DNA from: Gammaproteobacteria bacterium
Lineage (GTDB): Bacteria > Pseudomonadota > Gammaproteobacteria > DSM-16500
Length of the DNA: 64,000 nt
Reading direction: 5' to 3'
NCBI GenBank assembly: GCA_021325575.1
Contig: JAJPGW010000004.1
Coordinates: forward strand, 42,633-106,632
Shown here: one piece after another, positions 43,476 to 58,800 of the stretch
How positions within the stretch are numbered: the first letter of the stretch is position 1
How the letters are laid out: each line of letters starts with the position of its first letter
Notes under the pieces: generated by a model
What the model was told of the DNA's origin: nothing
The model's input: the letters and a program-made list of their open reading frames with translations, nothing else
Databases searched by the model: none
Position numbers and translations under genes: made by a program

Positions 43476-43575
43476 CCTAAAAAACCTCAAAGATAGACCT
43501 AAATTTAATCTTTCCTTAATAATTAGATGATATTATATACATCCTATTAAAAACATTGTCAATTCAGAGAGTTAT

Positions 43576-44844
43576 ATGCAACATTTAAGTTTAGATCCTG
43601 ACCGCAAAGTCGAATCCAAGAAGGCCAACGGCACCACCGTGATTTGCTGTGGAACTGATAAGGCCATGTACGGAGATGGTACAAAATTAGTTGAGTTGAT
43701 GCAGGAACTGATTACACCATCAAAAAACCCAACTATTGTGTTGCAAACGGATGGCTTGCAGACTTTTCTACCTTCCTTAGTAACTCGCGCGCTCGCTCCA
43801 AGCCGGGAGCTACTCAAGAAGCGTGAACCCCTCAATGCAGCAGCTCCTGCATGGATTTCACAATGGAAAGCCCGCAAAAATAAGCTTACTGAACAGCAAA
43901 GACTTCTTGCACAATTACATGAAGTAAGCCTCTCAATTAAGGGACCGATCGCTTTTCATTTCATCCATCGTGATATTAAGGAATTACAATCGAGTTTATT
44001 TGATCCAGCAAAGATTCCAGAAGGTGTCACACTTCATTTTCATCTTGCGGGAACGAATGGTTATAATGCTACACGAAGTAATATCTGTGAAAGTGTTGTT
44101 GGAACAGGAAAGCCCGATGAGCGCTACGCATCTTCAGAAGATACTTCAGTCTATGTTCAGGGATATCAAATACAATCAGAAAAGCTAACAAGAATTAATG
44201 TCACTTTGCTTGAACCAAATAGTGACATCGCAAAATTGGCTGGCAATATTTTGCTTGGTAATGGTTTTAGAGTGCATGGATTTCAATTAATTCCTAATCC
44301 AACAAAATTAATGGAACCATCCGATCTTTCCACAATTTGCGAATTACTTTTATCAAAAGTAAGCATTGAAAATATTTGTCGGTCGCTCGATTGTTCTTTG
44401 CATGCCGGTTTCACTTCAGAAAAAACGGTAAGACAATTGCAATTAGCATTAGTTGAGCGTCACATTGCAAGAATAGGAAATAATAGGGCTGATTTTTGCA
44501 GAGCCATTAAAGATTTAATTTTAAATATTGAATGGAAATCCAAAACATTTGATGTGAATTATCAAAAATTCTTGCCAAAAAATATGTCTGCCATGCTGGC
44601 AAGTATGCCTCAGGATGAAGAAGATATGGGATGGACCAAAGCATCCGATGAAATAGGTGATCGTGCTCGGAACGCGCTAGATAACAAACGAGATTGGATA
44701 GATCGCGTTAAGTCTTATTGCAGTCGCGATTGCTTAACTGAAGCTTGTTATACTGCAATCGCTAAAAAATATACTGAAATTTGCCAAGCAGAAAAACGAG
44801 AAAAACAACAATCAGCGCCTGTTTCTGAAGCAAAATTACCTTAA
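43576..44844 (+). CDS. large orphan protein, paralog B of the tandem pair
   Basis: 422 aa. Shares blocks with paralog A, for example LGNGFRVH vs VDNGFIVT, ILNIEWKS vs ILYTNWNV, and LPKNMSAMLASMPQDEEDMGW vs VPENMFAMLGMISQAEKDNEW. Confidence 0.55.
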   Translation: MQHLSLDPDRKVESKKANGTTVICCGTDKAMYGDGTKLVELMQELITPSKNPTIVLQTDGLQTFLPSLVTRALAPSRELLKKREPLNAAAPAWISQWKARKNKLTEQQRLLAQLHEVSLSIKGPIAFHFIHRDIKELQSSLFDPAKIPEGVTLHFHLAGTNGYNATRSNICESVVGTGKPDERYASSEDTSVYVQGYQIQSEKLTRINVTLLEPNSDIAKLAGNILLGNGFRVHGFQLIPNPTKLMEPSDLSTICELLLSKVSIENICRSLDCSLHAGFTSEKTVRQLQLALVERHIARIGNNRADFCRAIKDLILNIEWKSKTFDVNYQKFLPKNMSAMLASMPQDEEDMGWTKASDEIGDRARNALDNKRDWIDRVKSYCSRDCLTEACYTAIAKKYTEICQAEKREKQQSAPVSEAKLP

Positions 44845-44858
44845 TTTTTTTTAATTTT

Positions 44859-44885
44859 AAAAAAGGCCCAACAGGGCCTTTTTTA
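44859..44885. terminator. bidirectional rho-independent terminator
   Basis: AAAAAGGCCC-AACA-GGGCCTTTTTT between convergent genes. Confidence 0.75.
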
Positions 44886-44919
44886 TTTACCATTTTTCAA
44901 TGATTATCCGATTTCGATT

Positions 44920-45276
44920 TTATAATCGGGATTGTGGACAGAAAGAGTCTGGCTTTATTTCAGTTTTTTCGCCTGTATTTGTAATACCTAACCTAGTTAA
45001 TGTGGATCGCTCTTCCGCCGCTTTGGCCTTTACATAGGCTGCATATTTTTCTTCAGCTTCTGCAATTAATGGTGAAAGACGATCGACAATGTCTTTTTTT
45101 CCATCTGCTTTATATCTTTCTAAGCATTTTCTGAGATCAGCCATGATCACATCGGGAGCTCGATTAATATATAAGTGTACTTGGGTCCCTAATAGGGTAT
45201 TGGACATGGAGCTTGTCCGAAAATTAGCGATGTCATTCGCGACAAATTCTTTGAACGCTTGAGCCGATGAGCGCAT
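44920..45276 (-). CDS. orphan helical hypothetical protein
   Basis: 118-aa ORF followed by the shared terminator. Confidence 0.4.
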   Translation of the reverse strand: MRSSAQAFKEFVANDIANFRTSSMSNTLLGTQVHLYINRAPDVIMADLRKCLERYKADGKKDIVDRLSPLIAEAEEKYAAYVKAKAAEERSTLTRLGITNTGEKTEIKPDSFCPQSRL

Positions 45277-45485
45277 TTTTTAATACCTTCTAAATAGTTA
45301 ACAAGAGGTGTATTTTAATTTATTTTGAGTTAATTTTTAAACTAATATTTTTAATCTGTATATTTATTCAATATGAGGATATTCACTTATTAACGGATTA
45401 GTCAAATAGATAATATATAATTGTGTAAATCATAATCTACTTATGTAATAATTGACCAATTATTATTCGAGATTTCGGAAAAATC

Positions 45486-46970
45486 ATGACCCGAAGCACT
45501 AACAAAATGGAGCCAATGGAAGGCTTGCCTCGCGAAAAAACATGGTATTCTTCTCGTCCTCGTCCTGTTGGGCAAGATTGGATGGCTCAAATTATTGATC
45601 CCCCAACAAAAGATTCAAAAAATCGCACTTGTAAATTAACTTTATTTAAATATGCGCCACCTGCAGAAGAATTACAGGTTGATTTGCCTAAGGGAAAAAA
45701 ATTTGCAATTGTTGATAGGGGATACCAGTTTGCCGTTGTCGGCAACCAAAATTTATTTTTATATTCCATCCCACAAGGTCAGTCTCCAACGTTTCAAAGA
45801 AAACGATCGATAAAAGCACTTAACGAAGATGATACGACCAGTGATGTGATTCGCTTCAATGATCGTTACTTGGCCCGATTGCTTGGAGAACGCAATCACT
45901 GGGGGCAGCTACAATTTATTGATTGTGAGCAATCAGAAGATGTTGAATTTACGTTAGATAATCTGTTAGATGCTTGCGGCTATACTGTGAGGTTAGTGGC
46001 TCCTAATCGTCTTGTCATTTTGAATGGCATTAGATTTATCGCAGGTTATGATATTAATTTAGGAACCCATGGAAAAAAAATCGGTGTGCCAACAGACTAT
46101 AAAAAAACAGATCCATGGGCATTTTCTCAATGCAAAGATTGGTATCATTGTTATGTATCAGGTGATGGTCATTATGTTTTATACTCCCACTCTGCAAAAG
46201 TACACAAACGGGATCCTGAAAAAAAATCTTATGCAGAATTACAGGGCCAAGATCAATTATCCGGTAGTACGACTGGCTGTGGTTTTTTGCCTGATAATAA
46301 AGCGTTATTTCGAGATTATTCGAAAGAGGGTGTTTCTTTGGGGGTCTTTAATCCAGCAACATTACAATGTACTGAACTAACGTCCTATCGAAACCCCAAT
46401 TGGTTACAAAATCAATTCATTACTCCTGAAGGGGATGTGGTCTGTGCCTTAGAATATAGATCCCATCAAAGATGTGTTTACGAGACTCAGATTTTTCCGA
46501 TGCGCTATGATCATTTGAATTTGGATGAGCATGAGCGAAAGTTAGCATCCGGTGATACTTCAAAATTAACCGAAGCCGTCGTCGTTTCGACGCCGTGTTT
46601 ACCAAGAGGCGTTCAAAATATAGTTCTAAGTTGTCTCGTGCGTTATTCTCTAGTTGGTGTATTGGCCAACCGGGAAGCGCAAAGACAAGGTTTTCAAGTG
46701 CCGCATTGTTTTTCAGAAAAATCGCGAGCGCAAATTAAAATTTTTATGGATAATTCAGGGCATGAAGCTGAAAAAGAAGTGTTGAAACGATTTATCGATC
46801 ATGTCAAAGCGAATCATCCAAACAAATCCGTGCAAGTTTGTTTTGATGAATTAGTAAAGCAAGAAATCTTCAAACCTGTTTTTGGGCGATTTTTCTCAAC
46901 GAATTTTGAAAATTTAATTCATGAAATTTGTCAAAATGAAAATACTCAAGTTAAAAAAACTTGGACATGA
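45486..46970 (+). CDS. orphan protein with repeated beta-strand-rich blocks (propeller-like) and a helical C-terminus
   Basis: 494 aa. It may continue into the 46921-47130 frame through an A7 run (see findings). Confidence 0.5.
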   Translation: MTRSTNKMEPMEGLPREKTWYSSRPRPVGQDWMAQIIDPPTKDSKNRTCKLTLFKYAPPAEELQVDLPKGKKFAIVDRGYQFAVVGNQNLFLYSIPQGQSPTFQRKRSIKALNEDDTTSDVIRFNDRYLARLLGERNHWGQLQFIDCEQSEDVEFTLDNLLDACGYTVRLVAPNRLVILNGIRFIAGYDINLGTHGKKIGVPTDYKKTDPWAFSQCKDWYHCYVSGDGHYVLYSHSAKVHKRDPEKKSYAELQGQDQLSGSTTGCGFLPDNKALFRDYSKEGVSLGVFNPATLQCTELTSYRNPNWLQNQFITPEGDVVCALEYRSHQRCVYETQIFPMRYDHLNLDEHERKLASGDTSKLTEAVVVSTPCLPRGVQNIVLSCLVRYSLVGVLANREAQRQGFQVPHCFSEKSRAQIKIFMDNSGHEAEKEVLKRFIDHVKANHPNKSVQVCFDELVKQEIFKPVFGRFFSTNFENLIHEICQNENTQVKKTWT

Positions 46971-47279
46971 TGGGATTAAAAAAAAGAGTCCTGGGATATT
47001 GCCTATCTATCGTGACCTCATCGGCAAATTTATTCCAAAATGGCTGGCAGTGGGTCATGGTATGGCAGCTCTGATTGGATTTCTTTTTTTAATTATTTTT
47101 ATTTTTTTACATGATCATTCGCTGACATAATCAGCATGTAAAATCAAACAAAATTTTTATTTCATGCAAAAATAGTTTCTTTTAAAGTATTAAATCTAAA
47201 ATTTAAAATCACTTAGTTCTAAAAGGTAAGATGTTATGATAATCAATTAATTGAAAATTTTTTTGTAAGGGAACTTTTT

Positions 47280-48385
47280 ATGTTACAACAAAAAAAGAAG
47301 AAAAAGTTGATTCAGCAAGTAAGCATTATTTAAGTCTATTAGCAGAAGCCAAAAATAAAATTCAATCCACTCGTATACAGCTTGCAAGGGCGGCAAATCA
47401 AGAGCAAATAAATTTATATTGGTGGTTCGGTCAGAAAATAGTCGAAGCACAGGCAAAGTATCATTGGGGAAAATCGGTTGTTGATCAGCTTAGTATTGAT
47501 TTGCGCCATAATTTTGGTGCTATTTATGGTTTTTCAGCAAGAAATTTGTGGGAGATGAGGCGGTTTTATCTTGAGTGCGAAAATCAACCATTTCTGCAAC
47601 GACTCGTTGCAGAAATTCCTTGGGGACAAAATTTAGTCATTTTAAGCAAAGTTAAAGATTTGGATGCTCGAGAATATTACGTTCGTGCAGTAAGAGAACA
47701 AGGCTGGACACGTGATGTATTAGTAATCCAGATTAATTCCCAAGCCTATGAGCGCCATCTTTTAACCAAAAAACAACATAATTTTGAACAAGCTTTACCA
47801 GAACACCTTGCCGAACAAGCTGATCGCGCAATGAAAGATATTTATATGTTGGATACATTGGGTTTGACTAAGCCGGTTTTAGAAACTGTTCTAGAAAATC
47901 AGATGGTCGCTAAAATTAAAAATGTCATGCTTGAATTGGGTTATGGTTTCGCCTTTGTCGGCAATCAGTATCGAATCAATGCAAAAGGCAGGGAATATTT
48001 TATTGATTTGCTCTTTTATAATCGAAAACTGAAAGCATTGGTTGCAATGGAATTAAAAACCGGAAAATTTGAACCTGAATATGCAGGGAAAATGAATTTT
48101 TATTTAAATTTGTTAGATGATTTTGTTCGTGAGCCCGATGAAAATCCATCGATTGGCATTATTTTATGTTCTGAGCGTGATAAGTTTGAAGTGGAATATG
48201 CATTGCGAGGCTTAAATAAGCCCGTCGGTGTTTCAGAATTTCGTCTTACAAAAATATTGCCAGCGGAATTACAAGATAAATTACCGCGGGTGGATGAGAT
48301 CGAAAATGAAATAAGGAAAGGGTTGCGAACAGTAAACGATGAAGATATTTTGACAGAAAGTGGCGAAAAATTTGTGATGGAGTAG
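47280..48385 (+). pseudogene. YhcG/DUF1016 PDDEXK-nuclease family gene with a frameshift in an A7 run
   Basis: The body matches DUF1016 (..LYWWFGQKIVE....WGKSVVDQLS.DL...F....GFS.RNLW.MRRFY.., and D..FY.R.L..LVAMELK). The family N-terminus LLAEAKNKIQSTRIQLARAAN is open in the same frame back to 47255 but has no start. The only ATG (47280) is in another frame and would be joined by adding one A to A7 (47290-47296). Confidence 0.65.
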
Positions 48386-48480: not shown

Positions 48481-49290
48481 TTAAATCTGACCTGCTACTT
48501 GGCAGCTTGCATAAAATCCCGCAATTTGTGCGTCGTCATTTACTATTTTTTCAAGTTCGATTCCTTGATTAACCCATTCTATTTCAGTCTTTCCTTGTTC
48601 TAATTCGTATTGTTTAAGCTCCTCTCTACCTAGGAGTAATAGATTTTTTTCATCACGCGTTATTAATAACGGATGTATAATTTTTGCAGAAATGATCTTA
48701 AAACTTGCTTTATACATTTTATTATATAATTTCATTCCTAAATTGCCATCACGCATATTTTGTTCTTCGTTATCAATCCAAGGATATGGTCCAGTGTATT
48801 CTGTTCCCCAAGCTGGGTTATGTGGGTAAGAAAATGCAAAATTGACAATACCTTCCTCTGCTGCATAAATTCCATTAGGTTTAAGCACGCGGATGATTTT
48901 TTTGATAACTTGAGAGGGTGAATTAAGATGGTGTAATACAAAACGACAATACACCATATCAAATCTTTGATTAAGTGTCTCAATATCATAAGCAGATAAC
49001 AACTTAAATTCGATGTTGTTCAACCCCATTTTTTTAGCGCGAAGCATTGCAGCGTTTAATTGATTTTTATTATTCTCAATGGCAATAACAGATCCATTAT
49101 TACCGACTTGTTTCGCTATCCAACAAGTCATGGCGCCTGACCCGCATCCTATATCTAATACGATCATGCCAGATTTTAATCCGCTACAAATTAAAAATTC
49201 TTGCGTTGTTGGATTAAAACAATAGTCTAATTTATCTAGTCCAATGGAGCCTTCGTCACCAACGTCAACAATATATTTTTCATTTGGCAT
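48481..49290 (-). CDS. class I SAM-dependent methyltransferase
   Basis: Motif I VLDIGCGSGAMT, post-I IAIE, motif II FDMVYCRFVLHHL. Confidence 0.8.
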   Translation of the reverse strand: MPNEKYIVDVGDEGSIGLDKLDYCFNPTTQEFLICSGLKSGMIVLDIGCGSGAMTCWIAKQVGNNGSVIAIENNKNQLNAAMLRAKKMGLNNIEFKLLSAYDIETLNQRFDMVYCRFVLHHLNSPSQVIKKIIRVLKPNGIYAAEEGIVNFAFSYPHNPAWGTEYTGPYPWIDNEEQNMRDGNLGMKLYNKMYKASFKIISAKIIHPLLITRDEKNLLLLGREELKQYELEQGKTEIEWVNQGIELEKIVNDDAQIAGFYASCQVAGQI

Positions 49291-49414: not shown

Positions 49415-49436
49415 AATACCGTATTAACACGGTATT
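49415..49436. promoter_or_regulatory. 22-bp dyad operator, site 1 (perfect)
   Basis: AATACCGT-ATTAAC-ACGGTATT, in the divergent intergenic region. It is 51 nt upstream of the ATG at 49487. Confidence 0.6.
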
Positions 49437-49486
49437 GCTCCATTCGGCTGAATAAGTGATAATTATTGCAGTGATTGGAGAGAAAT

Positions 49487-49882
49487 ATGCGTTTATTAAA
49501 ATATGTAATTATTATAATGGCTAGCATGATTTTTATGTCATCTATAAGTTTTGCAGAAACTAATACCAAACAAAATCATGCACCGGTTGTTTTTCAAGTT
49601 GTTCAAGCTCAAATAAATTTTGATAATTCTATGATTAAAAATGCTTCATTTATTACAAATAATGATGGGTCCTTCGGTGGTCTTGAGATACAGTTAAAAC
49701 CATCTGCTTCTAAAGAACTAACTCGTATTACAGCAGCTGGAGTTGGTAAAGAGGCAAATCTTGTGATCAACGATAAAATCGTTAGCAGAGCCACTTTGCG
49801 TTCATCGTTGCAGGATCAATTTCTAATAACTGATATATCAAAAGAGGATGCTCAAAAATTTATTGATTCGTTGCATGAATAA
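49487..49882 (+). CDS. small secreted protein
   Basis: GGAGA Shine-Dalgarno then ATG at 49487. Signal peptide MRLLKYVIIIMASMIFMSSISFA. Confidence 0.55.
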   Translation: MRLLKYVIIIMASMIFMSSISFAETNTKQNHAPVVFQVVQAQINFDNSMIKNASFITNNDGSFGGLEIQLKPSASKELTRITAAGVGKEANLVINDKIVSRATLRSSLQDQFLITDISKEDAQKFIDSLHE

Positions 49883-49902
49883 TATTTTTATGCAAATTTG
49901 AA

Positions 49903-51054
49903 ATGTTGCGGCTTCCCACCAACAGAAATGATTTCATTGACTTCATACGAGGACTATCAATTCTTTGTGTCATTTTGCTTCATACTAACATATGGCTTCC
50001 GTTCGCCGATAGTCATTTAGGACAGATGGTTCCCCATGCTATTTCAAATATTTCTTTTCACAGCGGGTATTATGGAGTCATTATATTTTTTGTTGTCTCT
50101 GGATTTCTAATTACTAATACATCGATAAAAAGATGGGGGAATTTATCGAGAATACGTGTAATCGAATTTTATCAAATAAGATTTGCGCGAATTATCCCTT
50201 CTTTAATAGGGCTATTAATTATCCTAACTATGCTTCATTTAATGAGTGTCGATGGATTTATTATTAAAACTACAACGCTAGAAAATACTTTATTTGCAGC
50301 ATTAACTTTTCATATTAATTGGCTTGAGGCAAAAACAGGATATTTACCGGCTGGCTGGGATGTGCTCTGGTCGCTCTCTGTTGAAGAAATGTTTTATTTG
50401 TTTTTTCCGATTATTTGTTTGCTAACGAGAGGAAAATTGCTCTTTAAAATAATATTGTCCATTTTTGTTATTTTTGGCCCCATTGCCAGGTGCTTATATG
50501 CTGATAATGACATTTGGGCGTATCACTCCTATTTATCATGCATGGATGGGATTGCAATAGGTTGCTTGGCCGCAATCTATGTTAATAATGTTGAAATCAA
50601 AAGATCGGCAAGTAAATTTTTTTTATTTTCAGGATTATTGTTATTTATCTTGATATTTATTTTTCGACATACTACCTATCAGCTTGGGATGACTAAAATT
50701 GGTGTCAATGTAACTATTTTAGAAATCGGTATCGCATTTATTTTAGTTTGTGTAAGCAATTTAAAAATATATTCGGGTGGTTGGTTAATAACTGTTTTTA
50801 GTTGGTTTGGTAAAAATAGTTATGAGATTTATTTAACACATGTTCTTGTCATTTTTTCCATATCATATTTATTTTTTACTTTCAAAGTTTCAGCAAATTT
50901 AATTCCAATATGTTACGGATGCATACTATTTTTGTCGGGATTGTTAGGGTTCATAATCGCAACCTATTTTTCAGAACCGATCAATCAATTTTTAAGAACG
51001 AAATTCGTAGAAATAAACCAGAAGTCATTGAAAAATACTGAGTACACATCATGA
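49903..51054 (+). CDS. acyltransferase family 3 (OafA/YrhL-like) membrane protein
   Basis: N-terminal R...IDFIRGLSILCVILLH, about 10 TM helices, and the WSLSVEE.FY motif. Confidence 0.8.
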   Translation: MLRLPTNRNDFIDFIRGLSILCVILLHTNIWLPFADSHLGQMVPHAISNISFHSGYYGVIIFFVVSGFLITNTSIKRWGNLSRIRVIEFYQIRFARIIPSLIGLLIILTMLHLMSVDGFIIKTTTLENTLFAALTFHINWLEAKTGYLPAGWDVLWSLSVEEMFYLFFPIICLLTRGKLLFKIILSIFVIFGPIARCLYADNDIWAYHSYLSCMDGIAIGCLAAIYVNNVEIKRSASKFFLFSGLLLFILIFIFRHTTYQLGMTKIGVNVTILEIGIAFILVCVSNLKIYSGGWLITVFSWFGKNSYEIYLTHVLVIFSISYLFFTFKVSANLIPICYGCILFLSGLLGFIIATYFSEPINQFLRTKFVEINQKSLKNTEYTS

Positions 51055-51105
51055 TTTTTGTAAATTAGTTGGTTTACGACCATTTAATGGATTGCGCTAA
51101 ACTTG

Positions 51106-52029
51106 CTAAGCATGAGACAGTAATGGAAACATTAATTTATTTTTATCAAATAATATGGTCTTATTTTTTTGAATAAAAAGTGCGTCAGCTTCTACTATCT
51201 CTCTTGGCTTATAAGAGCTGATATCTTTTGGAGTAAATCCCAGCACGACTTCATCAATTCTGGAATTAATTAATGAATTAATAATCGTATCTAATTCCAC
51301 TTCAACCTTGCAGAAAACATCAAGCAAATAAAGCTGGTTGTTATTAAATTTCGCGACTGCAATTGCATCTAATGCTTTAATATAATATACATTCTCTTTA
51401 AAAAACGAGATGCAATAAAACATCACAAGATCCGCATTTTCTCTCATGGAAAGTTTGCTAAAGACCGATGAATTTTTCGCATAATCATACAGCATAGCTC
51501 GGTTGGATTGCATATCCATATTTAATTTTTCAAAATTTTCATGTTGCTCAATATTTTTATTAATTGCTCGGAAGTATTCGTATTCTTTAACTCTAGTAAA
51601 CCCAAATTTTGGATACATCTCCAACGCTGTTGGATTTGCATAGAGATAAACAAAATCACTTTTATCATTCCATTCTTCTAAAACTTTTTCCATCAAGAAT
51701 CGGCTTAATTTTTTATTACGATAATTTTCATCTGTTAAAACTGTTCCAATTTGAATATAGCGTTGCGGCTTACCAAGTGTGTTAAAATCCATGATATTCA
51801 CGGATACATTGCCTACAGCTTTATTTCCATCAAATAGTGTATAAGGAATATATTTTTCGTTCCAATATCCTGCTTGATACCATTCTTCGAAAGAAATGCC
51901 AAAAACTTTTTTTGCAAGTATATCAAATGCAGCTCTATACTTGACTTCTCTCTGGTATCCTATTAAAAAGATATACTCTTTATCTGCTAAATTTATTTTC
52001 AATATTAGTTTCCTTCTTAGCAAATTCAT
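51106..52029 (-). CDS. GNAT family N-acetyltransferase
   Basis: The acetyl-CoA motif region IQIGTV.TDENYRNKKLSRFLMEKVLE...LYANPTALEMYPKFGF. The start may be the TTG at 52002 (AGGAA Shine-Dalgarno 7 nt upstream). Confidence 0.7.
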   Translation of the reverse strand: MNLLRRKLILKINLADKEYIFLIGYQREVKYRAAFDILAKKVFGISFEEWYQAGYWNEKYIPYTLFDGNKAVGNVSVNIMDFNTLGKPQRYIQIGTVLTDENYRNKKLSRFLMEKVLEEWNDKSDFVYLYANPTALEMYPKFGFTRVKEYEYFRAINKNIEQHENFEKLNMDMQSNRAMLYDYAKNSSVFSKLSMRENADLVMFYCISFFKENVYYIKALDAIAVAKFNNNQLYLLDVFCKVEVELDTIINSLINSRIDEVVLGFTPKDISSYKPREIVEADALFIQKNKTILFDKNKLMFPLLSHA

Positions 52030-52874
52030 CTAACAAGATGCGCGTTGCGGCCGCAACGATATCATTGCGAGCTGAAGCTTCTTTTTTATTTTGCATCGTA
52101 TATATGGCCACGACAATAGGGGATTTTTGGGGTGGCCAAATAACAGCAATGTCATTGCATATTCCATATGATTCACCTGTACCGGTTTTATCAGCAACCA
52201 CCCATCCTCTAGGGACACCCGCGCGAATACGAGCATTCCCTGTGGTATTTTGCTTCATCCACAATGTTAATTGTTCGTCCTGAGTAGGTGCCAAAATATG
52301 TCCCAATGTTAATTGTCTTAAGCTCTTTAGCATTGCATCAGGTGTTGAGGTATCGCGTCGATTCAAAGCTCCTTCCAAATGTACCAACTGAAAATCGTTA
52401 TCGCCAATAGATCGTGCAAAAGCAATCACTGCGGCAGGTCCGCCTAATTGTTTTATAAGTAAATTGGCTGCAGTATTATCGCTATACATCATGGCTGCTC
52501 CACACAGTTCAGAAACAGTCATCCCATTTGCAATATGTTTTTTCGTGATAGGTGACCAGGTTACTAAATCTTTCTTGTTGTAAGTAATTTTTTGTTGCAA
52601 CAAGTGAGGATCGGACATGCTCCTTTTTAACACAGCCCCAACTACCATTAGTTTAAAAGTACTTTGAATAGGGAAATTCTGCTTCGCATGATATTGGATA
52701 CGCATATCATTTGCAGTGTTAATAGCTGATATGCCTATGTGTCCATCAAATGAAGATTCTAGTGTTGCTAATTTTTTTTGTGCTAGCAGTCTGTAGGGCT
52801 GAATTAGTCTGTGCATAAGTGAAAGAGGAAATAATAATTGAAATTGCAAACATAAACCGCATTAGTTGTTTCAT
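51980..52874 (-). pseudogene. class A beta-lactamase gene split by a frameshift in an A8 run
   Basis: All four class A motifs are present: STFK, SDN, E..LN region and KTG. The signal peptide MKQLMRFMFAISIIISSFTYA (ATG at 52874) is in a different frame. Removing one A from the run at 52772-52779 joins ..TASTKK to LATLESSFDGHIGISAI. Confidence 0.75.
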
Positions 52875-52945
52875 AAAATTGATCTCTTTTATCAGGGATT
52901 TTAGTCATAAAAAAAGGATTAGTATAATAGAAATATTTTATCGCT

Positions 52946-52967
52946 TATACCGTATTAATACTCTATA
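52946..52967. promoter_or_regulatory. dyad operator, site 2 (conserved left half, degenerate right half)
   Basis: TATACCGT-ATTAAT-ACTCTATA, about 73 nt upstream of the beta-lactamase ATG. Confidence 0.4.
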
Positions 52968-53023
52968 TATGATTGGGTATTGGAGATCAGGTGCCAGGCC
53001 TAATTAATATAGATTGTGGATGA

Positions 53024-53809
53024 TCAGTTGAATGGTTTATTTTTTATTTCGGTTTGAAAAATTTCAACAAGTTTTACAATTAGATCGGTTTTATTTGCAC
53101 AATTCAATTTAATTTTAAGATTATTAATATAGGTTTCGACTGTGCGAGGTGACAAAGAGAGCGTCTCCGCCATTTCTCTAGAATTCTTTCCTTGTAGCAA
53201 TAGCTTAGCACATACAAATTGCTGAGGTGATAATTTCACCTTAGATCGAATATTAATATCTAATATGGATTGATCTAGAATGTTAGCATCAGGAAGAGCT
53301 TTATTATGATATGGGAGATAAATTTTATTTGCTTCACTTTGTTTAATTAGATTGCTTGCTTTTTCCTTAAACTGATCCCTAAATTTTTTGAAAAAATCCA
53401 TGTTAGTCAAAAACGTGTTAACAGCATTATTAGCTCGATTAATGGCAAAGGCAGTAAATTCACAATAATCCTTATACGACTCAATAATAAAAATTCCATT
53501 GCCGGTACCGTGTTGCTTTAAAAATTCAAAAACCTGTTGATTTGGCAGTGTTGACCATAAAACGATTTGTGATTTGTAACTTGCAGGTTGTGCTTCGGAA
53601 TTACCGAAGCGATATAATTTATTTGTGTAATAATTTCTAAGATTCTCTGGTGTGTTGCAGAGCCAAATTCTACCGCCATCATGATAATGTCGTCCCCAAC
53701 TAAAATAATTGATGCCATTTGATAAGAGGGGATTGGCAATATTCCGAATTTCTTGTGCTGCTGTTAAAAACAAATGATCGTTTCGAATTATCATAATCTG
53801 CCTAGTCAT
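53024..53809 (-). CDS. LuxR/GerE-family transcriptional regulator (downstream copy)
   Basis: C-terminal HTH LSPQQFVCAKLLLQGKNSREMAETLSLSPRTVETYINNLKIKL. The ~180-aa N-terminal domain is unassigned. ATGA overlap with the upstream copy. An alternative ATG lies at 53794. Confidence 0.8.
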   Translation of the reverse strand: MTRQIMIIRNDHLFLTAAQEIRNIANPLLSNGINYFSWGRHYHDGGRIWLCNTPENLRNYYTNKLYRFGNSEAQPASYKSQIVLWSTLPNQQVFEFLKQHGTGNGIFIIESYKDYCEFTAFAINRANNAVNTFLTNMDFFKKFRDQFKEKASNLIKQSEANKIYLPYHNKALPDANILDQSILDINIRSKVKLSPQQFVCAKLLLQGKNSREMAETLSLSPRTVETYINNLKIKLNCANKTDLIVKLVEIFQTEIKNKPFN

Positions 53810-54552
53810 AGACCAAGAATTTTAATCAGTTTTACTATTAAATCGGCTCTGTTAGCACAATTTAATTTTATTTTTAAATTATTGATATATGATTCAATTG
53901 TGCGAGTCGACAAAGATAGCGATTCTGCAATTTCATTTGCTGTTTTACCGGCTAATATTAATTTAGCGCAGGAATGCTGACGTGGTGAAAGTTTTAAATT
54001 AGATTTAATATCGAAAGCTGGTATTTGATCGTATTCGTTGATTTTTGGAAGTGGTTTTTGATGATAAGGTATATAGATTTTATTTAACTCTCCTTTTTTA
54101 ATAATGTTTTTTGCGTGATCCTTAAAGTAATTTTTAAATTTATTTAAAAATTCCATATGGGTAAGGAATAAATTGACTGAATCGACAGTCTCTTTTTTTA
54201 CTGCAAAGCTAGTAAATTCACAATAATCTTTGTGCTGATCAATGAGGAAAATTCCATTATTTATTCCTCGTTGTTTTATGAACTCAAAAACTTTCTGGTT
54301 TGGCAGTGTTGACCATAGTACAACTTGTGATTGGTAGCTCGATGGATATGCTTCCGTGTTTCCAGAAACATATAATTTATTTGAGTAATAATTTTCTAAA
54401 TCTTCTGCCATACTACAAAGATTAATACGACTGCCATCGTTGTAATGACGATCCCAGCTAAAATAATTGATACCTAATGCTGAAAGGGGAGACATACATC
54501 CTTGAATATCTGAAGCTGATGTTAAGAAAAAATGATCGTTACTGATTGTCAT
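53806..54552 (-). CDS. LuxR/GerE-family transcriptional regulator (upstream copy)
   Basis: C-terminal HTH LSPRQHSCAKLILAGKTANEIAESLSLSTRTIESYINNLKIKL. Roughly 60 percent identical by eye to the downstream copy. Confidence 0.8.
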   Translation of the reverse strand: MTISNDHFFLTSASDIQGCMSPLSALGINYFSWDRHYNDGSRINLCSMAEDLENYYSNKLYVSGNTEAYPSSYQSQVVLWSTLPNQKVFEFIKQRGINNGIFLIDQHKDYCEFTSFAVKKETVDSVNLFLTHMEFLNKFKNYFKDHAKNIIKKGELNKIYIPYHQKPLPKINEYDQIPAFDIKSNLKLSPRQHSCAKLILAGKTANEIAESLSLSTRTIESYINNLKIKLNCANRADLIVKLIKILGL

Positions 54553-54712
54553 AATCTACTCAAAACCACAGGCCATTCGAAAATAAAATAATCAAACTGA
54601 ATTAAATAAATGCATATTTTAACATTTATGATTTCTATATAAAAGATTATTTAGAATTAAATATCAACCATTTTTTAATACAACCTATTGATTAATGGCG
54701 TATTTAATTTTG

Positions 54713-54734
54713 AATACCGTATTTTTACCCTAAT
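54713..54734. promoter_or_regulatory. dyad operator, site 3 (conserved left half, degenerate right half)
   Basis: AATACCGT-ATTTTT-ACCCTAAT, between the luxR pair and the cytochrome c gene. Confidence 0.4.
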
Positions 54735-54784
54735 ATTGTTTAGTTAAATAGTTTAAAATTCATGCCGCATTCACTATTATTGAA

Positions 54785-55189
54785 ATGTGGCTAATGTCTA
54801 AAAATTCTATTATGAAATGTGTATTCTTAACTCTAATCCTTTATTCTTTGGCAGTAGATGCAATCGCAAGCGGTGGTAAGGACCTCTATATTTCCCGTTG
54901 CGCTATGTGTCATGGCTTAGATGCCAAAGCAAGTGGATATTTAGCAAAGAAAAGTCATCCCCCAACCCCTGACTTGACTAGCCGCGTTTTTCAAGAGCGA
55001 TTAGCAAAATATCCAGGTGTGATAATTTCAGCGATTGTTTTGCAACCCAATGGCTCTTTGATTCCAGATACACTGAAAAGAAATCATGTTGTTGTCCCTC
55101 ATCATATTTGGACGGATAATGAATTACGATCCATAAATCAGTACATTTTGTCGTTGATTAAATCAAAACGGTGTGAGACCAAACCATAA
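54785..55189 (+). CDS. small c-type cytochrome (single CxxCH)
   Basis: Signal peptide followed by the GKDLYISRCAMCHG haem-binding motif. Confidence 0.65.
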   Translation: MWLMSKNSIMKCVFLTLILYSLAVDAIASGGKDLYISRCAMCHGLDAKASGYLAKKSHPPTPDLTSRVFQERLAKYPGVIISAIVLQPNGSLIPDTLKRNHVVVPHHIWTDNELRSINQYILSLIKSKRCETKP

Positions 55190-55247
55190 TCTGAAGAAGA
55201 AACATTGTTGGCAAGCATATGAAACCTAAAGAAAATATTCCACAAAA

Positions 55248-55829
55248 ATGAACGTACCAATATTAAAATTAAATGATTGGCTAGAAAAAGAAAGGAAATT
55301 GGGATCATCTAATCCAGATAGAGCCGTATTAGCTACAGCTGGAAAAGATAATATTCCACATAGTCGTGTTGTTGCAATCCGAGAAATTAATGAAAAAGGT
55401 ATACTGTTTTTTACGCAGCGTGGAACAAGAAAAGTTATGGAATTACAGCAAAATCCGTATGCTTCGATGACATTATGGTTACCATTGCAGCAGAGAGAAA
55501 TTATTGTTGAAGGTGGTGTCATTGAATTATCGCGAGAAGTAAACGAAAAGTATTGGAAAACATTACCCCGCGATAGGCAATTGCGTTTTGCTGCATATGC
55601 TCCGACTTCTACTCAGCCCATTCAGTCTATTGAAACCATCAACGATGAATATCATAATTTGTTAAAGCAATTTGACAGACGAGATGTTCCAATTAGCGAA
55701 TATTATTGTGGATTTCGGTTGTTTCCTGAATATTTTTACTTTTATTCTTTGGGCTCTGATGATTTTTCTGAATTAATTAAATATCGTTTTAATAATGATC
55801 AATGGACTGAGCAATTACTTTCTCCATAA
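55248..55829 (+). CDS. pdxH: pyridoxamine 5'-phosphate oxidase family protein
   Basis: A.LAT......PHSRVV.IR......G..FFT...S.K..EL..NP.AS...W..L.RQ....G and the C-terminal W....L.P. Confidence 0.65.
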   Translation: MNVPILKLNDWLEKERKLGSSNPDRAVLATAGKDNIPHSRVVAIREINEKGILFFTQRGTRKVMELQQNPYASMTLWLPLQQREIIVEGGVIELSREVNEKYWKTLPRDRQLRFAAYAPTSTQPIQSIETINDEYHNLLKQFDRRDVPISEYYCGFRLFPEYFYFYSLGSDDFSELIKYRFNNDQWTEQLLSP

Positions 55830-55996
55830 AAAATAGTTAGCATGATAGAAACACAAGTTTCTAATATTACGTGGAGCGGAATAATCGTTGATATAATCGA
55901 GCAGGGTAAATTCAAAGAAACTTGAGTTTGGTTTAAAAGAATTGAACATGATCAAATTTAAGATGATAGAAAATAACCCACTATGTAAAATATTAA

Positions 55997-56338
55997 TTAA
56001 TCAATAATCTGATGCTGCTCAACACAAAATGCAGGCCTACAGGAAATGCAAAGTGTCATATTTCCTTTCCAAACAAATTTTTCTCCAGCTTCAATTAAAA
56101 TGAGATCCCCTTCGTTTAAAAAATTTTTTTCTCCATTGACAATAACTTCGCCACTGCCGCTTTGCACATATACAATTTCAGTGCATTTTTGATTTACAGC
56201 ACATTTTTCAGCAGGGTATTGGCCATTGATTCTTACCACCGCAAAATCAATCCCTTTATTCTCCATAGGATATTCAGTTACAATGCAAAGATCGCTATTT
56301 TTTCTTTCTATTGATTGATTTTTTAGCATGATTTTCAT
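55997..56338 (-). CDS. cupin domain protein
   Basis: 113 aa. E..YV..G.G.....GE......GD...I..GE.F.W.G pattern. Confidence 0.65.
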   Translation of the reverse strand: MKIMLKNQSIERKNSDLCIVTEYPMENKGIDFAVVRINGQYPAEKCAVNQKCTEIVYVQSGSGEVIVNGEKNFLNEGDLILIEAGEKFVWKGNMTLCISCRPAFCVEQHQIID

Positions 56339-56373
56339 GAGCAGGTTATCCTAATTATAATTTCTTATTCATT

Positions 56374-57297
56374 TCATTTTTTAGTTCCCAAAGTGCAGAA
56401 ATGATAATCCTTTTGTGATTCATAGGGGTTATCCCCAACACCATATTGAGTTGTCAGATCGGAACAAACATGATTTTCTAATAGAATCATACCTGCCTCA
56501 TCAGCTAATGCTTTAATATTATCGTATCCATTGATCATTGGCGCTCTAGCACTCTTAAATTTATCCATCATATTTGTAACTTCGTTGACTCTCTTAATTT
56601 TATCAATCGTTGCTTTGCCCATATAATCAAATGATATATAGACAGTGCCCTTGAAAGCATCTTTTATTTGACATAATACAGTTTTTACCTGATCAGGAGA
56701 TAAATACATTGTATTACCTTCCCATATAAAATGAGTCGGTATACTGAGATCAATACCTGCATCGATGAGATGTTTAACAAAATTTTCATTGAGATAATCG
56801 ATACCAATATATTTCGCATTAGTATCAATTTTATGTTCATCATAAATTCTTTTTTTATTCGCTAATACTTCTGGTTTATCTATTTCAAAATATTTTACAG
56901 GGTATTTTTTCTTTCTGACTGGTCGCGTATCATAGCCGCTTCCTAAAATCACAACTTGTTCGATACGCTTACTACAGTTTTTCACATGAGCCGAAAGTGC
57001 TTTATTAAAAAATTTGTGGCGTACAGCTAATGCCAACCATAATTTTGGATCCATTGTTTTTTCTGTTTGCGCAGCAATTTGTTCAGTAACAAAAAGTTTC
57101 ATGTAATCATCTTTAAATAAGTCTTTTTTTCTGGGCGCTTTGCCATGCCGACTTGGTTCCCAAAAGCCAACTCTTCTTGCTTGGTCTTTTACGTAATTAG
57201 TGAATAATCCAGTTTGGGTGACGCCGGAATTTTCTTTATTGTCGGGTGCTTTTACATCTGGTTGTGTAACAGATTTTTCTTTGCCTGGAGTGAACAT
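56374..57297 (-). CDS. SAM-dependent methyltransferase, leucine carboxyl methyltransferase (LCMT)/TIGR00027-like
   Basis: VVILGSGYDTRP......KYFEID.PEV...K and THFIWEGNTMYL are the family signatures as I recall them. Confidence 0.65.
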   Translation of the reverse strand: MFTPGKEKSVTQPDVKAPDNKENSGVTQTGLFTNYVKDQARRVGFWEPSRHGKAPRKKDLFKDDYMKLFVTEQIAAQTEKTMDPKLWLALAVRHKFFNKALSAHVKNCSKRIEQVVILGSGYDTRPVRKKKYPVKYFEIDKPEVLANKKRIYDEHKIDTNAKYIGIDYLNENFVKHLIDAGIDLSIPTHFIWEGNTMYLSPDQVKTVLCQIKDAFKGTVYISFDYMGKATIDKIKRVNEVTNMMDKFKSARAPMINGYDNIKALADEAGMILLENHVCSDLTTQYGVGDNPYESQKDYHFCTLGTKK

Positions 57298-57352
57298 ATG
57301 CTGGCCTTAACAAATCAAAAAACGATTAATACTAACACATTTATGAGGAAAA

Positions 57353-57374
57353 AATACCGTAGATTCACGGTAGT
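57353..57374. promoter_or_regulatory. dyad operator, site 4
   Basis: AATACCGT-AGATTC-ACGGTAGT, in the divergent region between the LCMT-like gene and a GNAT gene. Confidence 0.55.
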
Positions 57375-57414
57375 TAATAAAATTAATCAAGAATAAAATG
57401 CACAACAAAAAATT

Positions 57415-57933
57415 GTGAAAGCAGGGAATAATATGTTTTTTGTCACGCCATCAGCCAAATTTTCACCCACCTTGAAAGTGCATAAATTATCTGGACATGC
57501 TGAGGAAAAATTATGGCTCACCCAAGCAGCTGCCTGGGCGGAAGAAAAGTGGGGCTATATTCGTAACTACCCTGGAATTACTGAGCGAATAAAAATAATT
57601 ACAAAATTAAAGGAAAATTTTTATATCGTGACATATGACAAACAACCTGTAGGAATGTTTGCTTTGCTCGATTATAAAGCTCTTGAATCCAAACAAGCTA
57701 TCAAAGAACTCATGTATCTTTATGTGGATAAAAGTTTTAGAAATATGGGCATCGGAAGCCAAATGATTAAAATCGCAAAAGGAATTGCCAAACAACAGGG
57801 CTGTGAATCAATCGTTTTTGATACCTTAACACCGAGTTTAAATGGATTCTACAAAAAACAGGGCGCAAAAGTAATTTGTGAAGGCCAATTACTGGGTCAT
57901 CCAACTACGGTTTTGAGAATGAAGACATCATAA
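57415..57933 (+). CDS. GNAT family N-acetyltransferase
   Basis: LYVDKSFRNMGIGSQMIKIAKGIAKQQGCESIVFDT. GTG at 57415 or ATG at 57433. Confidence 0.75.
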   Translation: MKAGNNMFFVTPSAKFSPTLKVHKLSGHAEEKLWLTQAAAWAEEKWGYIRNYPGITERIKIITKLKENFYIVTYDKQPVGMFALLDYKALESKQAIKELMYLYVDKSFRNMGIGSQMIKIAKGIAKQQGCESIVFDTLTPSLNGFYKKQGAKVICEGQLLGHPTTVLRMKTS

Positions 57934-57968
57934 CCCTTTAGTGCGGTATTGCGCTGGTTTCCGAAAAA

Positions 57969-58388
57969 TTATGCTTTTATTTGAGGCAATACATTAATTG
58001 AAATTTTATTTTGTTTGTCCCCAAGTACCATTCTGCCTTCCTGATTAATTTTTGTTATGATTACAGGTTTAGCAATAATTTCAGGTTTATTTTCAAGATC
58101 AATTACTATGAAATTCAGACGAATTGATTTTGAATCATATTTATCTGCCTGCGCTAACAATAATAAAGGTGGTTTATTTGATGCTGATTTATCACCAGGC
58201 ACAATCATCCATGATCGGTTGGAAGAGAAGATCAAGTGATTACTAATTGCATAAGAGTCATTCGAATGTAATTTTTGATAACTAAAATTAATCTTGATTA
58301 ATAAATCATGAAAATTAGGGCTATCGGTTTGAGCCTTTGCTAAGGTAAAGAATAGCAATGTTGTAACAAATAATAATAATTTATACAT
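57969..58388 (-). CDS. small secreted protein
   Basis: AAGGA Shine-Dalgarno then ATG at 58388. Signal peptide MYKLLLFVTTLLFFTLAKA. Confidence 0.5.
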   Translation of the reverse strand: MYKLLLFVTTLLFFTLAKAQTDSPNFHDLLIKINFSYQKLHSNDSYAISNHLIFSSNRSWMIVPGDKSASNKPPLLLLAQADKYDSKSIRLNFIVIDLENKPEIIAKPVIITKINQEGRMVLGDKQNKISINVLPQIKA

Positions 58389-58482
58389 AGGAATGTCCTT
58401 TCGGCTGTGTTTGTTTACTGACAATTATAACAGTAATACTAAGATACTACATTTTAATCGAGAATAAATTATTTTTTATTTA

Positions 58483-58504
58483 ATTACCGTATTATTACGG
58501 TAGA
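58483..58504. promoter_or_regulatory. dyad operator, site 5
   Basis: ATTACCGT-ATTATT-ACGGTAGA, about 95 nt from both divergent start codons. Confidence 0.55.
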
Positions 58505-58597
58505 TAAATTAATTTTAATAAATATAATTCGCGATGTTTTAGGTTCTCACCTAAATCTAAAAATAGAGAAATCAATTTAATTATTTAAGGAAAAACC

Positions 58598-58789
58598 ATG
58601 GCTATTAGAAAAGAAAATCCATTTGCAAGACTAAATGACAAGGGTAGTAATGATTCTATAAATTTAAGAACAGATAGGCTAAAACTATTTTCTGCTACTT
58701 CCAATAAGGAAGACTCAAGAAATGGATTTGTTCATGAAGTGGAAACAGGAGTTGAACAACAAGTTTCAGCTTCTAAGTTAAAACTTTAA
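58598..58789 (+). CDS. 63-aa hydrophilic small protein
   Basis: Strong AAGGA Shine-Dalgarno 7 nt before the ATG. No Cys and no TM helix. Followed by a 12-bp stem hairpin. Confidence 0.45.
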   Translation: MAIRKENPFARLNDKGSNDSINLRTDRLKLFSATSNKEDSRNGFVHEVETGVEQQVSASKLKL

Positions 58790-58800
58790 TTACATCTATT

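Follow-up and report, generated by a model that had tools for sequence, protein, structure and literature searches.

Five copies of an inverted repeat, TACCGT-N6-ACGGTA, are packed into 9.1 kb around a pair of luxR-type genes on an island in the 64-kb stretch of DNA analysed here (hereafter the window), and judging from the sequence we consider it likely that they are the operators by which the two LuxR proteins act as class II activators on six transcription units. We infer that dimers of the two regulators would bind the five dyads, the dyad centre lying about 42.5 bp upstream of a predicted transcription start and standing in for the -35 element; since the dyad replaces that element, the regulator, once bound, would bring in RNA polymerase by class II activation, and activation would probably be gated by a small-molecule ligand because the regulators have a ligand-binding domain like that of quorum-sensing receptors. 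The units that would respond encode a secreted protein and an acyltransferase, a beta-lactamase and a GNAT protein, a cytochrome c and a PNPOx protein, an LCM methyltransferase and a cupin, another GNAT protein, and a small ORF with a JmjC protein and a nucleotidyltransferase. A first-pass annotation had proposed lux-box-like operators of this LuxR pair, and the prediction draws support from the association of dyad and regulator in related loci, the absence of perfect dyads from control loci, the spacing to -10-like hexamers and the receptor fold of the regulator.

At no more than two mismatches the window holds five dyads between 49417 and 58502, three of them perfect and two with two mismatches, against 0.64 expected, and they stand where they had been reported. 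No other dyad was found in the window at this threshold, none of 100 dinucleotide shuffles of the window reached five, and the matches that appear at up to three mismatches are scattered, none being in intergenic island DNA. The five sites are as follows.

49415 to 49436, no strand: dyad site 1, AATACCGTATTAACACGGTATT, with a perfect 6-6-6 core at 49417-49434, TACCGTATTAACACGGTA
52946 to 52967, no strand: dyad site 2, core 52948-52965, TACCGTATTAATACTCTA, two mismatches (right arm GG to TC)
54713 to 54734, no strand: dyad site 3, core 54715-54732, TACCGTATTTTTACCCTA, two mismatches (right arm GG to CC)
57353 to 57374, no strand: dyad site 4, perfect core 57355-57372, TACCGTAGATTCACGGTA, apparently bidirectional, with predicted -10s on both sides
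58483 to 58504, no strand: dyad site 5, perfect 7-4-7 core 58485-58502, TACCGTATTATTACGGTA

All are intergenic and, as had been claimed, four (sites 1, 3, 4 and 5) are flanked by divergent genes, the exception being site 2, which has the luxR-B 3' end on one side and the 5' end of the beta-lactamase gene bla on the other. The nearest start codons are 61-105 nt from the dyad centres, and the distance is 135 nt to the methyltransferase start and 171 nt to that of luxR-A. The heptamer TACCGTA does occur six times on the plus strand, as had been counted, with the sixth copy at 6640 and not 6641; the minus strand has two copies, at 7666 and 58496, the latter belonging to site 5 as its second arm. 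In 22 sites the family consensus is a-TACCGTA-wwww-TACGGTA-t with G5 and C14 invariant, the arms being conserved and the AT-rich spacer not, and the sites have the 18-20 bp dyad symmetry of lux-box-type operators. A check for a dispersed repeat family found no longer repeat: the copies are alike for no more than about 21 nt, which means that the dyads are not embedded in one. The GC content of the island is 30-36%, compared with 40-47% upstream.

The regulator genes and the promoter predicted for them are given below.

53806 to 54552, minus strand: luxR-A, 248 aa, quorum-sensing-receptor-like ligand-binding domain and GerE/LuxR HTH
53024 to 53809, minus strand: luxR-B, 261 aa (256 aa in the NCBI call), a paralogue of luxR-A
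54616 to 54624, minus strand: extended -10 TGTTAAAAT, predicted to drive the luxR-A/B operon, 72 nt before the ATG

The two genes overlap by 4 nt and their products are 61% identical, with near-identical recognition helices (RTIESYINNLK in LuxR-A, RTVETYINNLK in LuxR-B) that recur likewise across the close family. Both belong to the LuxR/FixJ/NarL HTH group, matching Pfam GerE PF00196 above the gathering score (3e-15 for LuxR-A, 9e-13 for LuxR-B). Sequence matches to PDB entries are restricted to the HTH, an hhalign comparison with LasR yields an alignment confined to residues 182-236 (the HTH), and Pfam Autoind_bind PF03472 gave no match at E<=0.01 in the pair, nor does it appear among the domains precomputed for about 45 relatives. 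The AlphaFold model of LuxR-A (pLDDT 91) has full-length Foldseek matches to QscR, SdiA, LasR, RhlR, TraR and CviR with E from 3e-9 to 4e-5, and the matches to LasR ligand-binding domains have a target-normalised TM of 0.56-0.63. As modelled, LuxR-A has its HTH attached to an N-terminal autoinducer-binding-domain fold, in the manner of quorum-sensing-type receptors, and its ligand is probably other than an acyl-homoserine lactone. The island genes scanned include no LuxI-type synthase, and a domain search of the island genes found no other DNA-binding domain, which bears out the view that the pair are the sole DNA-binding proteins there. The luxR-A/B operon has a probable promoter of its own, independent of the dyad: its predicted extended -10 stands about 100 bp from the dyad, and TGnTAnnnT elements of like kind occur upstream of the luxR genes at six related loci (L003, L005, L006, L007, L008 and L043).

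The position of the dyads relative to -10-like hexamers, defined as TAnnnT with at least four of six matches to TATAAT, was scored in 46 oriented flanks. Such hexamers cluster 20-22 nt past the 18-mer (20 matches in the 46 flanks, where other offsets have about 1.5 each), and this fixed spacing of predicted -10s would place the dyad centre near -42.5, while the -35 positions of the dyad promoters, read by eye, are poor (1-4 of 6). In the window the hexamer is TATACT on the minus strand at site 2 (52926-52921, 21 nt past the core, towards bla), TAAAAT on the plus side of site 3 (54754-54759, 21 nt, towards the cytochrome c gene), TAAAAT (57394-57399, plus, 21 nt) and TAGTAT (57334-57329, minus, 20 nt) at site 4, and TATAAT on the plus side of site 5 (58523-58528, 20 nt). 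On the plus side of site 1 it is GATAAT (49458-49463), 23 nt past the core, an exception that counts against a fixed spacing, as do several related sites with 24 nt or no -10 (L044, L048). No -10 was found at 20-22 nt on the minus side of site 1 or the luxR-A side of site 3, and on the minus side of site 5 the sole hexamers, TATTCT and TAAAAT, lie at 18 nt and 28 nt. When the region was scanned for promoters in general, 74 turned up against 68 expected, a chance-level result that speaks against the predicted -10s. These elements are predictions within AT-rich DNA. The predicted units and their neighbours are listed here.

49475 to 51054, plus strand: predicted unit 1, SecDF-P1-head-like secreted protein, probably starting from the ATG at 49488, with an Acyl_transf_3 membrane acyltransferase
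51106 to 52874, minus strand: predicted unit 2, class A beta-lactamase and 307-aa GNAT (domain search, -10 spacing)
54785 to 55829, plus strand: predicted unit 3, secreted cytochrome c-like protein (CAMCH motif) and PNPOx-family flavoprotein (domain search, -10 spacing)
55997 to 57297, minus strand: predicted unit 4, LCM-family SAM methyltransferase and cupin (domain search, -10 spacing)
57433 to 57933, plus strand: predicted unit 5, 166-aa GNAT acetyltransferase (domain search, -10 spacing)
58598 to 60616, plus strand: predicted unit 6, 63-aa ORF, hairpin at 58798-58844, JmjC-type cupin and Pol-beta-type nucleotidyltransferase
57969 to 58424, minus strand: possible target, 151-aa secreted protein, -10 spacing non-canonical
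48481 to 49290, minus strand: SAM methyltransferase, LuxR-family-linked cargo without canonical promoter geometry

The six predicted units are those whose promoters have the dyad/-10 geometry. Of the nine or ten units listed as served in the first-pass annotation, six have the canonical geometry; it was not found for the methyltransferase at 48481, the 151-aa protein or the luxR pair. The homologue of the 151-aa protein at L002:5204-5587 (33% identity) lies directly behind a dyad (L002:5128) that is followed 21 nt later by TATATT, and copies of the methyltransferase at 48481, 62-81% identical, adjoin LuxR homologues in L002, L006 and L007. Sec signal peptides are found in the beta-lactamase, the cytochrome c and two small proteins. 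That of the beta-lactamase starts from the ATG at 52874, and the bla frame is broken at an A8 run (52772-52779).

To survey the regulator family, we used 13 independent loci encoding LuxR relatives of 40-62% identity (223 kb in total) and, as controls, 34 loci of remote homologues (569 kb). The dyad adjoins the regulator in 11 of the 13 close-family loci. Checked for enrichment, the close set has 13 perfect dyads against 0.009 expected and five with one mismatch (0.36 expected for at most one mismatch), all intergenic and adjoining the regulator or its neighbours, whereas the control set has no perfect dyad and one with a single mismatch, against 0.024 and 0.95 expected. Two observations count against the association: a close-family locus with full flanks, L045, yielded no dyad, and the N6 dyad is missing from many remote homologues whose recognition helix is almost the same. 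Beside homologues of 25-33% identity or HTH-only relatives (Coxiellaceae, Tatlockia, Waddliaceae and others), ACCGT-N7-ACGGT occurs eight times, and the same half-sites with spacers of 2-6, 8 or 9 were never found there; CCGTA-N4-TACGG is kept in an alphaproteobacterial MAG and a groundwater gammaproteobacterium. LuxR-A is 25-26% identical to its Legionella-clade homologues (L. drancourtii, a Tatlockia MAG), and the relatives of the island family come from uncultured Coxiellaceae/Legionellales-type and unassigned contigs. Island cargo is shared with other LuxR-bearing contigs at 55-81% identity, as with the 307-aa GNAT (65-68% identical copies in L002 and L044), the cytochrome c (64%, L002) and the PNPOx protein (55%, L044), and the gene contents of the close-family contigs otherwise differ. 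By sequence comparison, other Legionellales-type genomes also carry the module of regulator, boxes and part of the cargo, its gene content differing from one to the next. In a metagenome sample of at least 120 stretches, chosen for the dyad alone, 10 of 12 LuxR-type HTH ORFs in the 120 stretches listed lie within 1 kb of a dyad, a zone that makes up 31% of the sequence; against the association, none of these 120 encodes a full-length family member, and by a rough estimate chance could explain most of the dyads in so large a collection.

Some quorum-sensing-type LuxR proteins act as repressors or anti-activators, and the island pair might likewise bind the dyads to repress, in an EsaR-like or roadblock manner, occluding the promoter until released by ligand. 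A dyad over about -51 to -34 would block the polymerase too, and at site 5 a partial -35 (TAGATA) would give a 10/12 sigma-70-like promoter unaided. We hold repression to be unlikely, however, since most dyad promoters, read by eye, lack a usable -35 (1-3 of 6) and would thus offer little basal promoter to repress, the predicted fixed -42.5 phasing is a signature of class II activation, and both characterised Legionella LuxR auxiliary regulators activate (PMC13555631).

It is less probable still that a regulator encoded elsewhere binds the dyad, luxR proximity being coincidental or due to co-regulation by that factor. The genome is visible through 64 kb only, and identical dyads stand beside PAS-LuxR and REC-LuxR genes in unrelated metagenome contigs, so the sequence is not exclusive to the island LuxR subfamily; against this, the dyad goes with that subfamily in contigs of differing gene content, the half-site is kept with the family down to 25% identity, and no further DNA-binding domain was found among the island genes. 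We give little credence to structural or mobile DNA, whether a miniature repeat family or RNA hairpin terminators or attenuators: the arms could form a 7-bp stem, a terminator scan flags site 4 on the minus strand, followed by a T-run, and site 2 is 59 nt downstream of luxR-B, but the likeness of the copies stops too soon, the dyads are upstream of genes rather than behind them, the degenerate arm of two sites would disrupt the stem, the conservation is in the arms and not in the spacer, and a -10 spacing would be meaningless for a terminator. Chance clustering of a short AT-rich palindrome, to which the low GC of the island and the AT-rich spacers would lend themselves and against which the two degenerate sites alone would lack significance, is effectively refuted by an excess of orders of magnitude replicated in independent loci.

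Class II activation by the LuxR pair would have well-known parallels. LuxR at the lux box and TraR at the tra boxes activate in this way, with the box near -42.5 replacing the -35 element, and they share with the island an 18-20 bp dyad and a two-domain LuxR protein, binding and position being predicted here. The LuxR-A model matches TraR, LasR, QscR and SdiA over both domains, including the GerE/LuxR HTH; the island proteins differ in giving no match to the Pfam autoinducer-binding domain and in aligning to the LasR profile by the HTH only. To our knowledge, TACCGTA-N4-TACGGTA is unlike both the lux box and the tra box. LuxR solos (SdiA, QscR and non-AHL solos) also combine the receptor fold with the lack of an adjacent synthase gene, and QscR and SdiA are the best structural matches of the model, although the island ligand-binding domain has diverged too far for a sequence-based assignment of contact residues. 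NarL, with a 7-2-7 box of TACYYMT, and SsrB, with a 7-4-7 18-bp palindrome, are phosphorylation-controlled response regulators. By these descriptions their operators resemble the island box in heptamer arms beginning TAC and in the SsrB layout, and the HTH superfamily is the same, whereas the N-terminal domain of the island proteins is, by the model, a ligand-binding fold.

The island switch would be a fresh example of a well-known kind, closest to RegK3 and LexR1 of Legionella, which turn on adjoining genes gained by horizontal transfer, acting through inverted repeats whose distance from the -10 is constant (PMC13555631), and differing in its box. Alike are the LuxR-type regulator with an N-terminal sensory domain, its place in low-GC, patchily distributed DNA beside its (here predicted) targets, the paralogue pairs, the target sets common to genomes and reshuffled, and a possible extended -10 promoter of the regulator gene itself (PMC13555631). 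As in Legionella-type regulator-effector islands (RegK3, LciRS), the regulator lies beside box-bearing predicted targets in horizontally acquired DNA. The box of LexR1 (lpg2524) contains a GTC...GAC inverted repeat, mutated there from GTC to TGA and from GAC to TCA, and for LexR1 orthologues, defined at >=60% identity, close homologues are reported to be lacking outside Legionella (PMC13555631); neither GTC nor GAC is present in any of the five dyad sites. RegK3 differs in having a PAS domain, and several predicted island targets (beta-lactamase, cytochrome c, acyltransferase) are Sec-exported or housekeeping-like and not obvious type IV effectors. Eukaryote-like domains of the island are LCM and JmjC, with DOT1 nearby and without a box, and behind the boxes at other loci stand Ank-repeat, PAF-AH-like and Scabin-like proteins.

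Searching the window for the palindrome TACCGT-N6-ACGGTA (an 18-mer, here called the dyad or box) with at most two mismatches recovered the five sites read by eye in the first-pass annotation, and that set is complete.

Dyad sites in the window and the tandem LuxR-type regulator genes beside two of them
49417, site 1, perfect
52948, site 2, two mismatches, beside luxR-B (53024..53809, minus strand)
54715, site 3, two mismatches, beside luxR-A (53806..54552, minus strand)
57355, site 4, perfect
58485, site 5, perfect

These five dyads stand against 0.64 expected in the window, and a count of five is not attained in any of 100 dinucleotide-preserving shuffles. All are intergenic, as had been claimed, and divergent gene pairs flank four of them, the exception being site 2, which lies between the luxR-B stop and the start of the beta-lactamase gene; matches with three mismatches are scattered over the window, none of them in intergenic island DNA. 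The heptamer TACCGTA had been counted correctly at six copies on the plus strand (the sixth at 6640), and the minus strand holds two further copies, one being the opposite arm of site 5. The two isolated heptamers, found without a partner arm outside the island (6640-6646, plus strand, and 7666-7672, minus strand), are consistent with chance, 2.4 being expected in the window. The dyad copies stop resembling each other beyond about 21 nt, which argues for a short motif rather than a dispersed repeat, and both a repeat family and terminators were rejected as readings of the dyads. The symmetrised matrix of 22 sites is a-TACCGTA-wwww-TACGGTA-t with G5 and C14 invariant; the two degenerate window sites, which flank the luxR pair's own genes, keep both positions, and the mismatches of each hit the GG of one arm. 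A literature search with the box sequence and LuxR returned unrelated titles only, with no paper describing the box.

The GC content is 30-37% from about 42 kb to the window end versus 40-47% upstream. The genes around the dyads encode a SAM methyltransferase, a SecDF-P1-like secreted protein, an Acyl_transf_3 acyltransferase, a 307-aa GNAT and a class A beta-lactamase (307 bits against NCBIfam bla_class_A, cut-off 200), then the two tandem LuxR-family proteins, a cytochrome c-like protein, a PNPOx flavoprotein, a cupin and an LCM-family methyltransferase, and further a small GNAT, a 151-aa secreted protein, a 63-aa ORF, a JmjC-type cupin, a Pol-beta nucleotidyltransferase and a DOT1-like methyltransferase. 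The LuxR pair had been named as the sole DNA-binding proteins among them, and no other DNA-binding domain was found.

Database searches returned only about 36 full-length relatives of the LuxR proteins, all from metagenomes or MAGs and 36-62% identical, and the DNA around 12 relatives together with the window gave a family set of 13 independent loci (223 kb). A dyad with at most one mismatch is present in 11 of the 13, always intergenic and adjoining the regulator or its neighbours; the 223 kb contain 13 perfect dyads versus 0.009 expected from base composition, and five one-mismatch dyads (0.36 expected for at most one mismatch). The 569 kb surrounding 34 remote homologues yielded no perfect dyads (0.024 expected) and one one-mismatch dyad (0.95 expected), and two-mismatch dyads are at chance level, with 16 versus 17.3 expected at up to two mismatches.

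A variant of the box was found around remote homologues that are 25-33% identical or match in the HTH only. ACCGT-N7-ACGGT, the dyad half-site with a spacer longer by one base, occurs there in eight copies (L011:10851 and 11443; L015:9905; L018:3761; L020:10804; L029:10780; L034:8036 and 9271), all intergenic and followed at about 21-25 nt by a -10-like hexamer. One copy, in a Tatlockia MAG, is about 1.2 kb from the homologue, and for the remaining seven this distance is at most about 0.7 kb; the other hosts are two Coxiellaceae MAGs, a Waddliaceae (Chlamydiae) MAG and two unclassified bacteria. The ACCGT/ACGGT pair with a spacer of 2-6, 8 or 9 is absent from the remote-homologue loci, where we estimate about 0.2 per spacer by chance, and when further 6-mer inverted repeats shared by the surroundings of the remote homologues were sought de novo, none recurred. 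The inner core CCGTA-N4-TACGG is kept in an alphaproteobacterial MAG (two loci, with five and three sites) and in a groundwater gammaproteobacterium.

The reverse test took at least 120 metagenome stretches chosen solely for ATACCGTA-N4-TACGGTAT, and none of the 120 listed encodes a full-length family member. This is weak evidence against a link between dyad and regulator, since the matches listed are part of all matches and, roughly estimated, most of them could be due to chance in a collection of this size. The test is uninformative on the exclusivity of the dyad and usable only for local enrichment of LuxR-type HTH genes: 10 of the 12 such ORFs in the stretches listed lie within 1 kb of a dyad, a zone making up 31% of the sequence, although many of these loci are mutually related, so that the enrichment gives class-level support only. 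Among the ORFs near a dyad are PAS-LuxR proteins of about 180 aa and REC-LuxR response regulators, unrelated LuxR-type genes on contigs of 37-64% GC that have the dyad 0-100 nt upstream (L071:3123, L101:344, L107:6431, L110:1433, L120:2229 and L164:567). These arrangements suggest an operator common to several LuxR_C subfamilies, which probably serves their autoregulation.

For the promoter geometry, hexamers of the form TAnnnT with at least four of six matches to TATAAT were scored as -10-like in 46 oriented flanks of 23 sites. They peak sharply 20-22 nt past the 18-mer, with 20 matches versus about 1.5 per offset elsewhere. Placing the -10 at -12 to -7 puts the dyad centre at about -42.5 and the 18-mer from -51 to -34; the -35 position is made up of TA and four bases of the flank, with only 1-4 matches to TTGACA. 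On these predicted -10 elements, the spacing is that of a lux box in the class II arrangement.

Predicted -10 elements at the window dyads (site and strand, hexamer, distance, genes faced)
Site 1, plus strand, GATAAT, 23 nt, towards the secreted protein and acyltransferase
Site 2, minus strand, TATACT, 21 nt, towards bla and GNAT
Site 3, plus strand, TAAAAT, 21 nt, towards cytochrome c and PNPOx
Site 4, plus strand, TAAAAT, 21 nt, towards GNAT
Site 4, minus strand, TAGTAT, 20 nt, towards LCM methyltransferase and cupin
Site 5, plus strand, TATAAT, 20 nt, towards the 63-aa ORF, JmjC and nucleotidyltransferase

The list of served genes in the first-pass annotation therefore holds in part: six sides have the dyad/-10 geometry, and it is missing in the direction of the methyltransferase at 48481, of luxR-A and of the 151-aa protein. 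A generic sigma-70 promoter and terminator scan stayed at chance level in the AT-rich DNA and was not counted as evidence.

The luxR-A gene has its own predicted extended -10, TGTTAAAAT (54624-54616, minus strand). A similar element (TGnTAAAAT-like) precedes luxR at six other loci (L003, L005, L006, L007, L008 and L043); in the regulator family it is often present, 37-108 nt from the luxR ATG, and recalls the extended -10/RpoS-type promoters reported for orthologues of lexR1 (lpg2524), a Legionella auxiliary LuxR regulator. In six cases the luxR start codon is preceded by a dyad at a distance of 172-203 nt, and at the Coxiellaceae locus L008 each luxR gene of the tandem has a dyad facing it, with a -10 at 22-24 nt, positions that make autoregulation likely in some relatives of the LuxR pair.

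The recurrence of the dyad in the family loci and its fixed spacing to the -10 support the original reading of the five sites as the operator set of the island's LuxR pair. As the most likely mechanism, which we hold with considerable confidence, LuxR-A and/or LuxR-B, gated by a ligand, would activate the six island promoters in class II fashion. The main rival keeps the same proteins and has them repress the dyad promoters.

LuxR-A and LuxR-B are 61% identical, with a near-identical recognition helix, RT(I/V)E(S/T)YINNLK; Pfam finds the GerE HTH only, and PDB sequence matches cover that domain only. A structure model from 43 family sequences (pLDDT 91) matches QscR, SdiA, LasR, RhlR, TraR and CviR over both domains (E 3e-9 to 4e-5), with a target-normalised TM of about 0.6 against LasR ligand-binding domains; a profile comparison with LasR aimed at the AHL-contact residues aligned the HTH alone. 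Going by the model, the pair is best described as quorum-sensing-fold LuxR solos. The lineage is not known to make acyl-homoserine lactones, and such a fold there raises the question of the ligand. Control of a class A beta-lactamase, GNATs and methyltransferases by such receptors would tie signal sensing to functions of the resistance or modification type.

Several cargo genes of the island recur beside LuxR relatives.

Copies of window cargo at other loci (identity, locus)
Methyltransferase, 62-81%, L002, L006 and L007, beside LuxR relatives
307-aa GNAT, 65-68%, L002 and L044, beside LuxR relatives
PNPOx, 55%, L044, beside a LuxR relative
Cytochrome c, 64%, L002, beside a LuxR relative
151-aa protein, 33%, L002, directly behind a dyad there

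Elsewhere, the boxed genes encode large family-less proteins, ankyrin-repeat proteins, PAF-AH-like lipases and a Scabin-like ADP-ribosyltransferase. This mixture of regulator and boxed cargo is like the Legionella regulator-effector islands and auxiliary regulators (PMC13555631). However, the LexR1 box contains GTC...GAC (PMC13555631), which the window dyads lack, and RegK3, another of these regulators, differs from the island LuxR proteins in having a PAS domain. The box and regulator system would be a new example of an already known type of LuxR switch.

More tentatively, and with doubt prevailing, the pair may represent an undescribed clade of quorum-sensing-fold solos that passes by horizontal transfer between intracellular bacteria associated with amoebae (Coxiellaceae/Legionellales, a Waddliaceae chlamydia and Alphaproteobacteria), along with cargo bearing an ACCGT-N6/7-ACGGT box. 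If so, it would be a portable ligand-gated regulon cassette, through which effector-like genes and drug- or envelope-modifying genes of recent acquisition would answer a host or environmental small molecule rather than a self-made autoinducer.

The island offers a concrete, testable regulon for acquired DNA in a Legionellales-type genome (one box, two regulators, six promoters), widens the reach of the recent concept of auxiliary LuxR regulators of acquired genes past cultured Legionella, and provides a box with spacer variants usable to predict targets of the regulator family in uncultured intracellular bacteria.

Some minor observations are added. L045, the only family locus with full flanks that lacks a dyad, has gyrB and gyrA fragmented into many short ORFs (L045:4266-7846), the cause being either genome decay or a long-read assembly rich in errors. 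The family branch at 40-43% identity has a second conserved element, approximately AATGAGGGGATCATTGAG, promoter-distal and directly upstream of the dyad (L008:180-215 and 1885-1919; L046:1900-1934 and 10760-10795; L025:9360-9393); it is absent at the window's dyads and may be the site of a second factor or belong to a promoter cassette. Where the GC content drops there is a lone parB-like gene (40762-41562), and after it come three large family-less ORFs (607, 422 and 494 aa) and a YhcG/DUF1016 nuclease gene (region 40762-48385); the right end of the island is past the window. The DOT1-like methyltransferase gene (60690-61310) is inside the island and has no dyad. The class A beta-lactamase gene is split (52746-52874, minus strand) at an A8 run (52772-52779): from ATG 52874 a good signal peptide (MKQLMRFMFAISIIISSFTYA) is read before a stop in that frame, the mature protein resumes in another frame from the run, and one A less would join the frames (…TASTKKLATLESSFDGHIGI…), which could mean a pseudogene, a slippage-prone tract or a homopolymer sequencing error. 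The small ORF with the JmjC hydroxylase and nucleotidyltransferase behind it resembles a peptide-modification cluster. An inverted repeat that separates the 63-aa ORF from the JmjC gene (58798-58844; 21-nt arms, 86% complementary, 5-nt loop, T-rich 3' side) may be a terminator or attenuator, in which case the 63-aa ORF would be the main product of the site 5 promoter.
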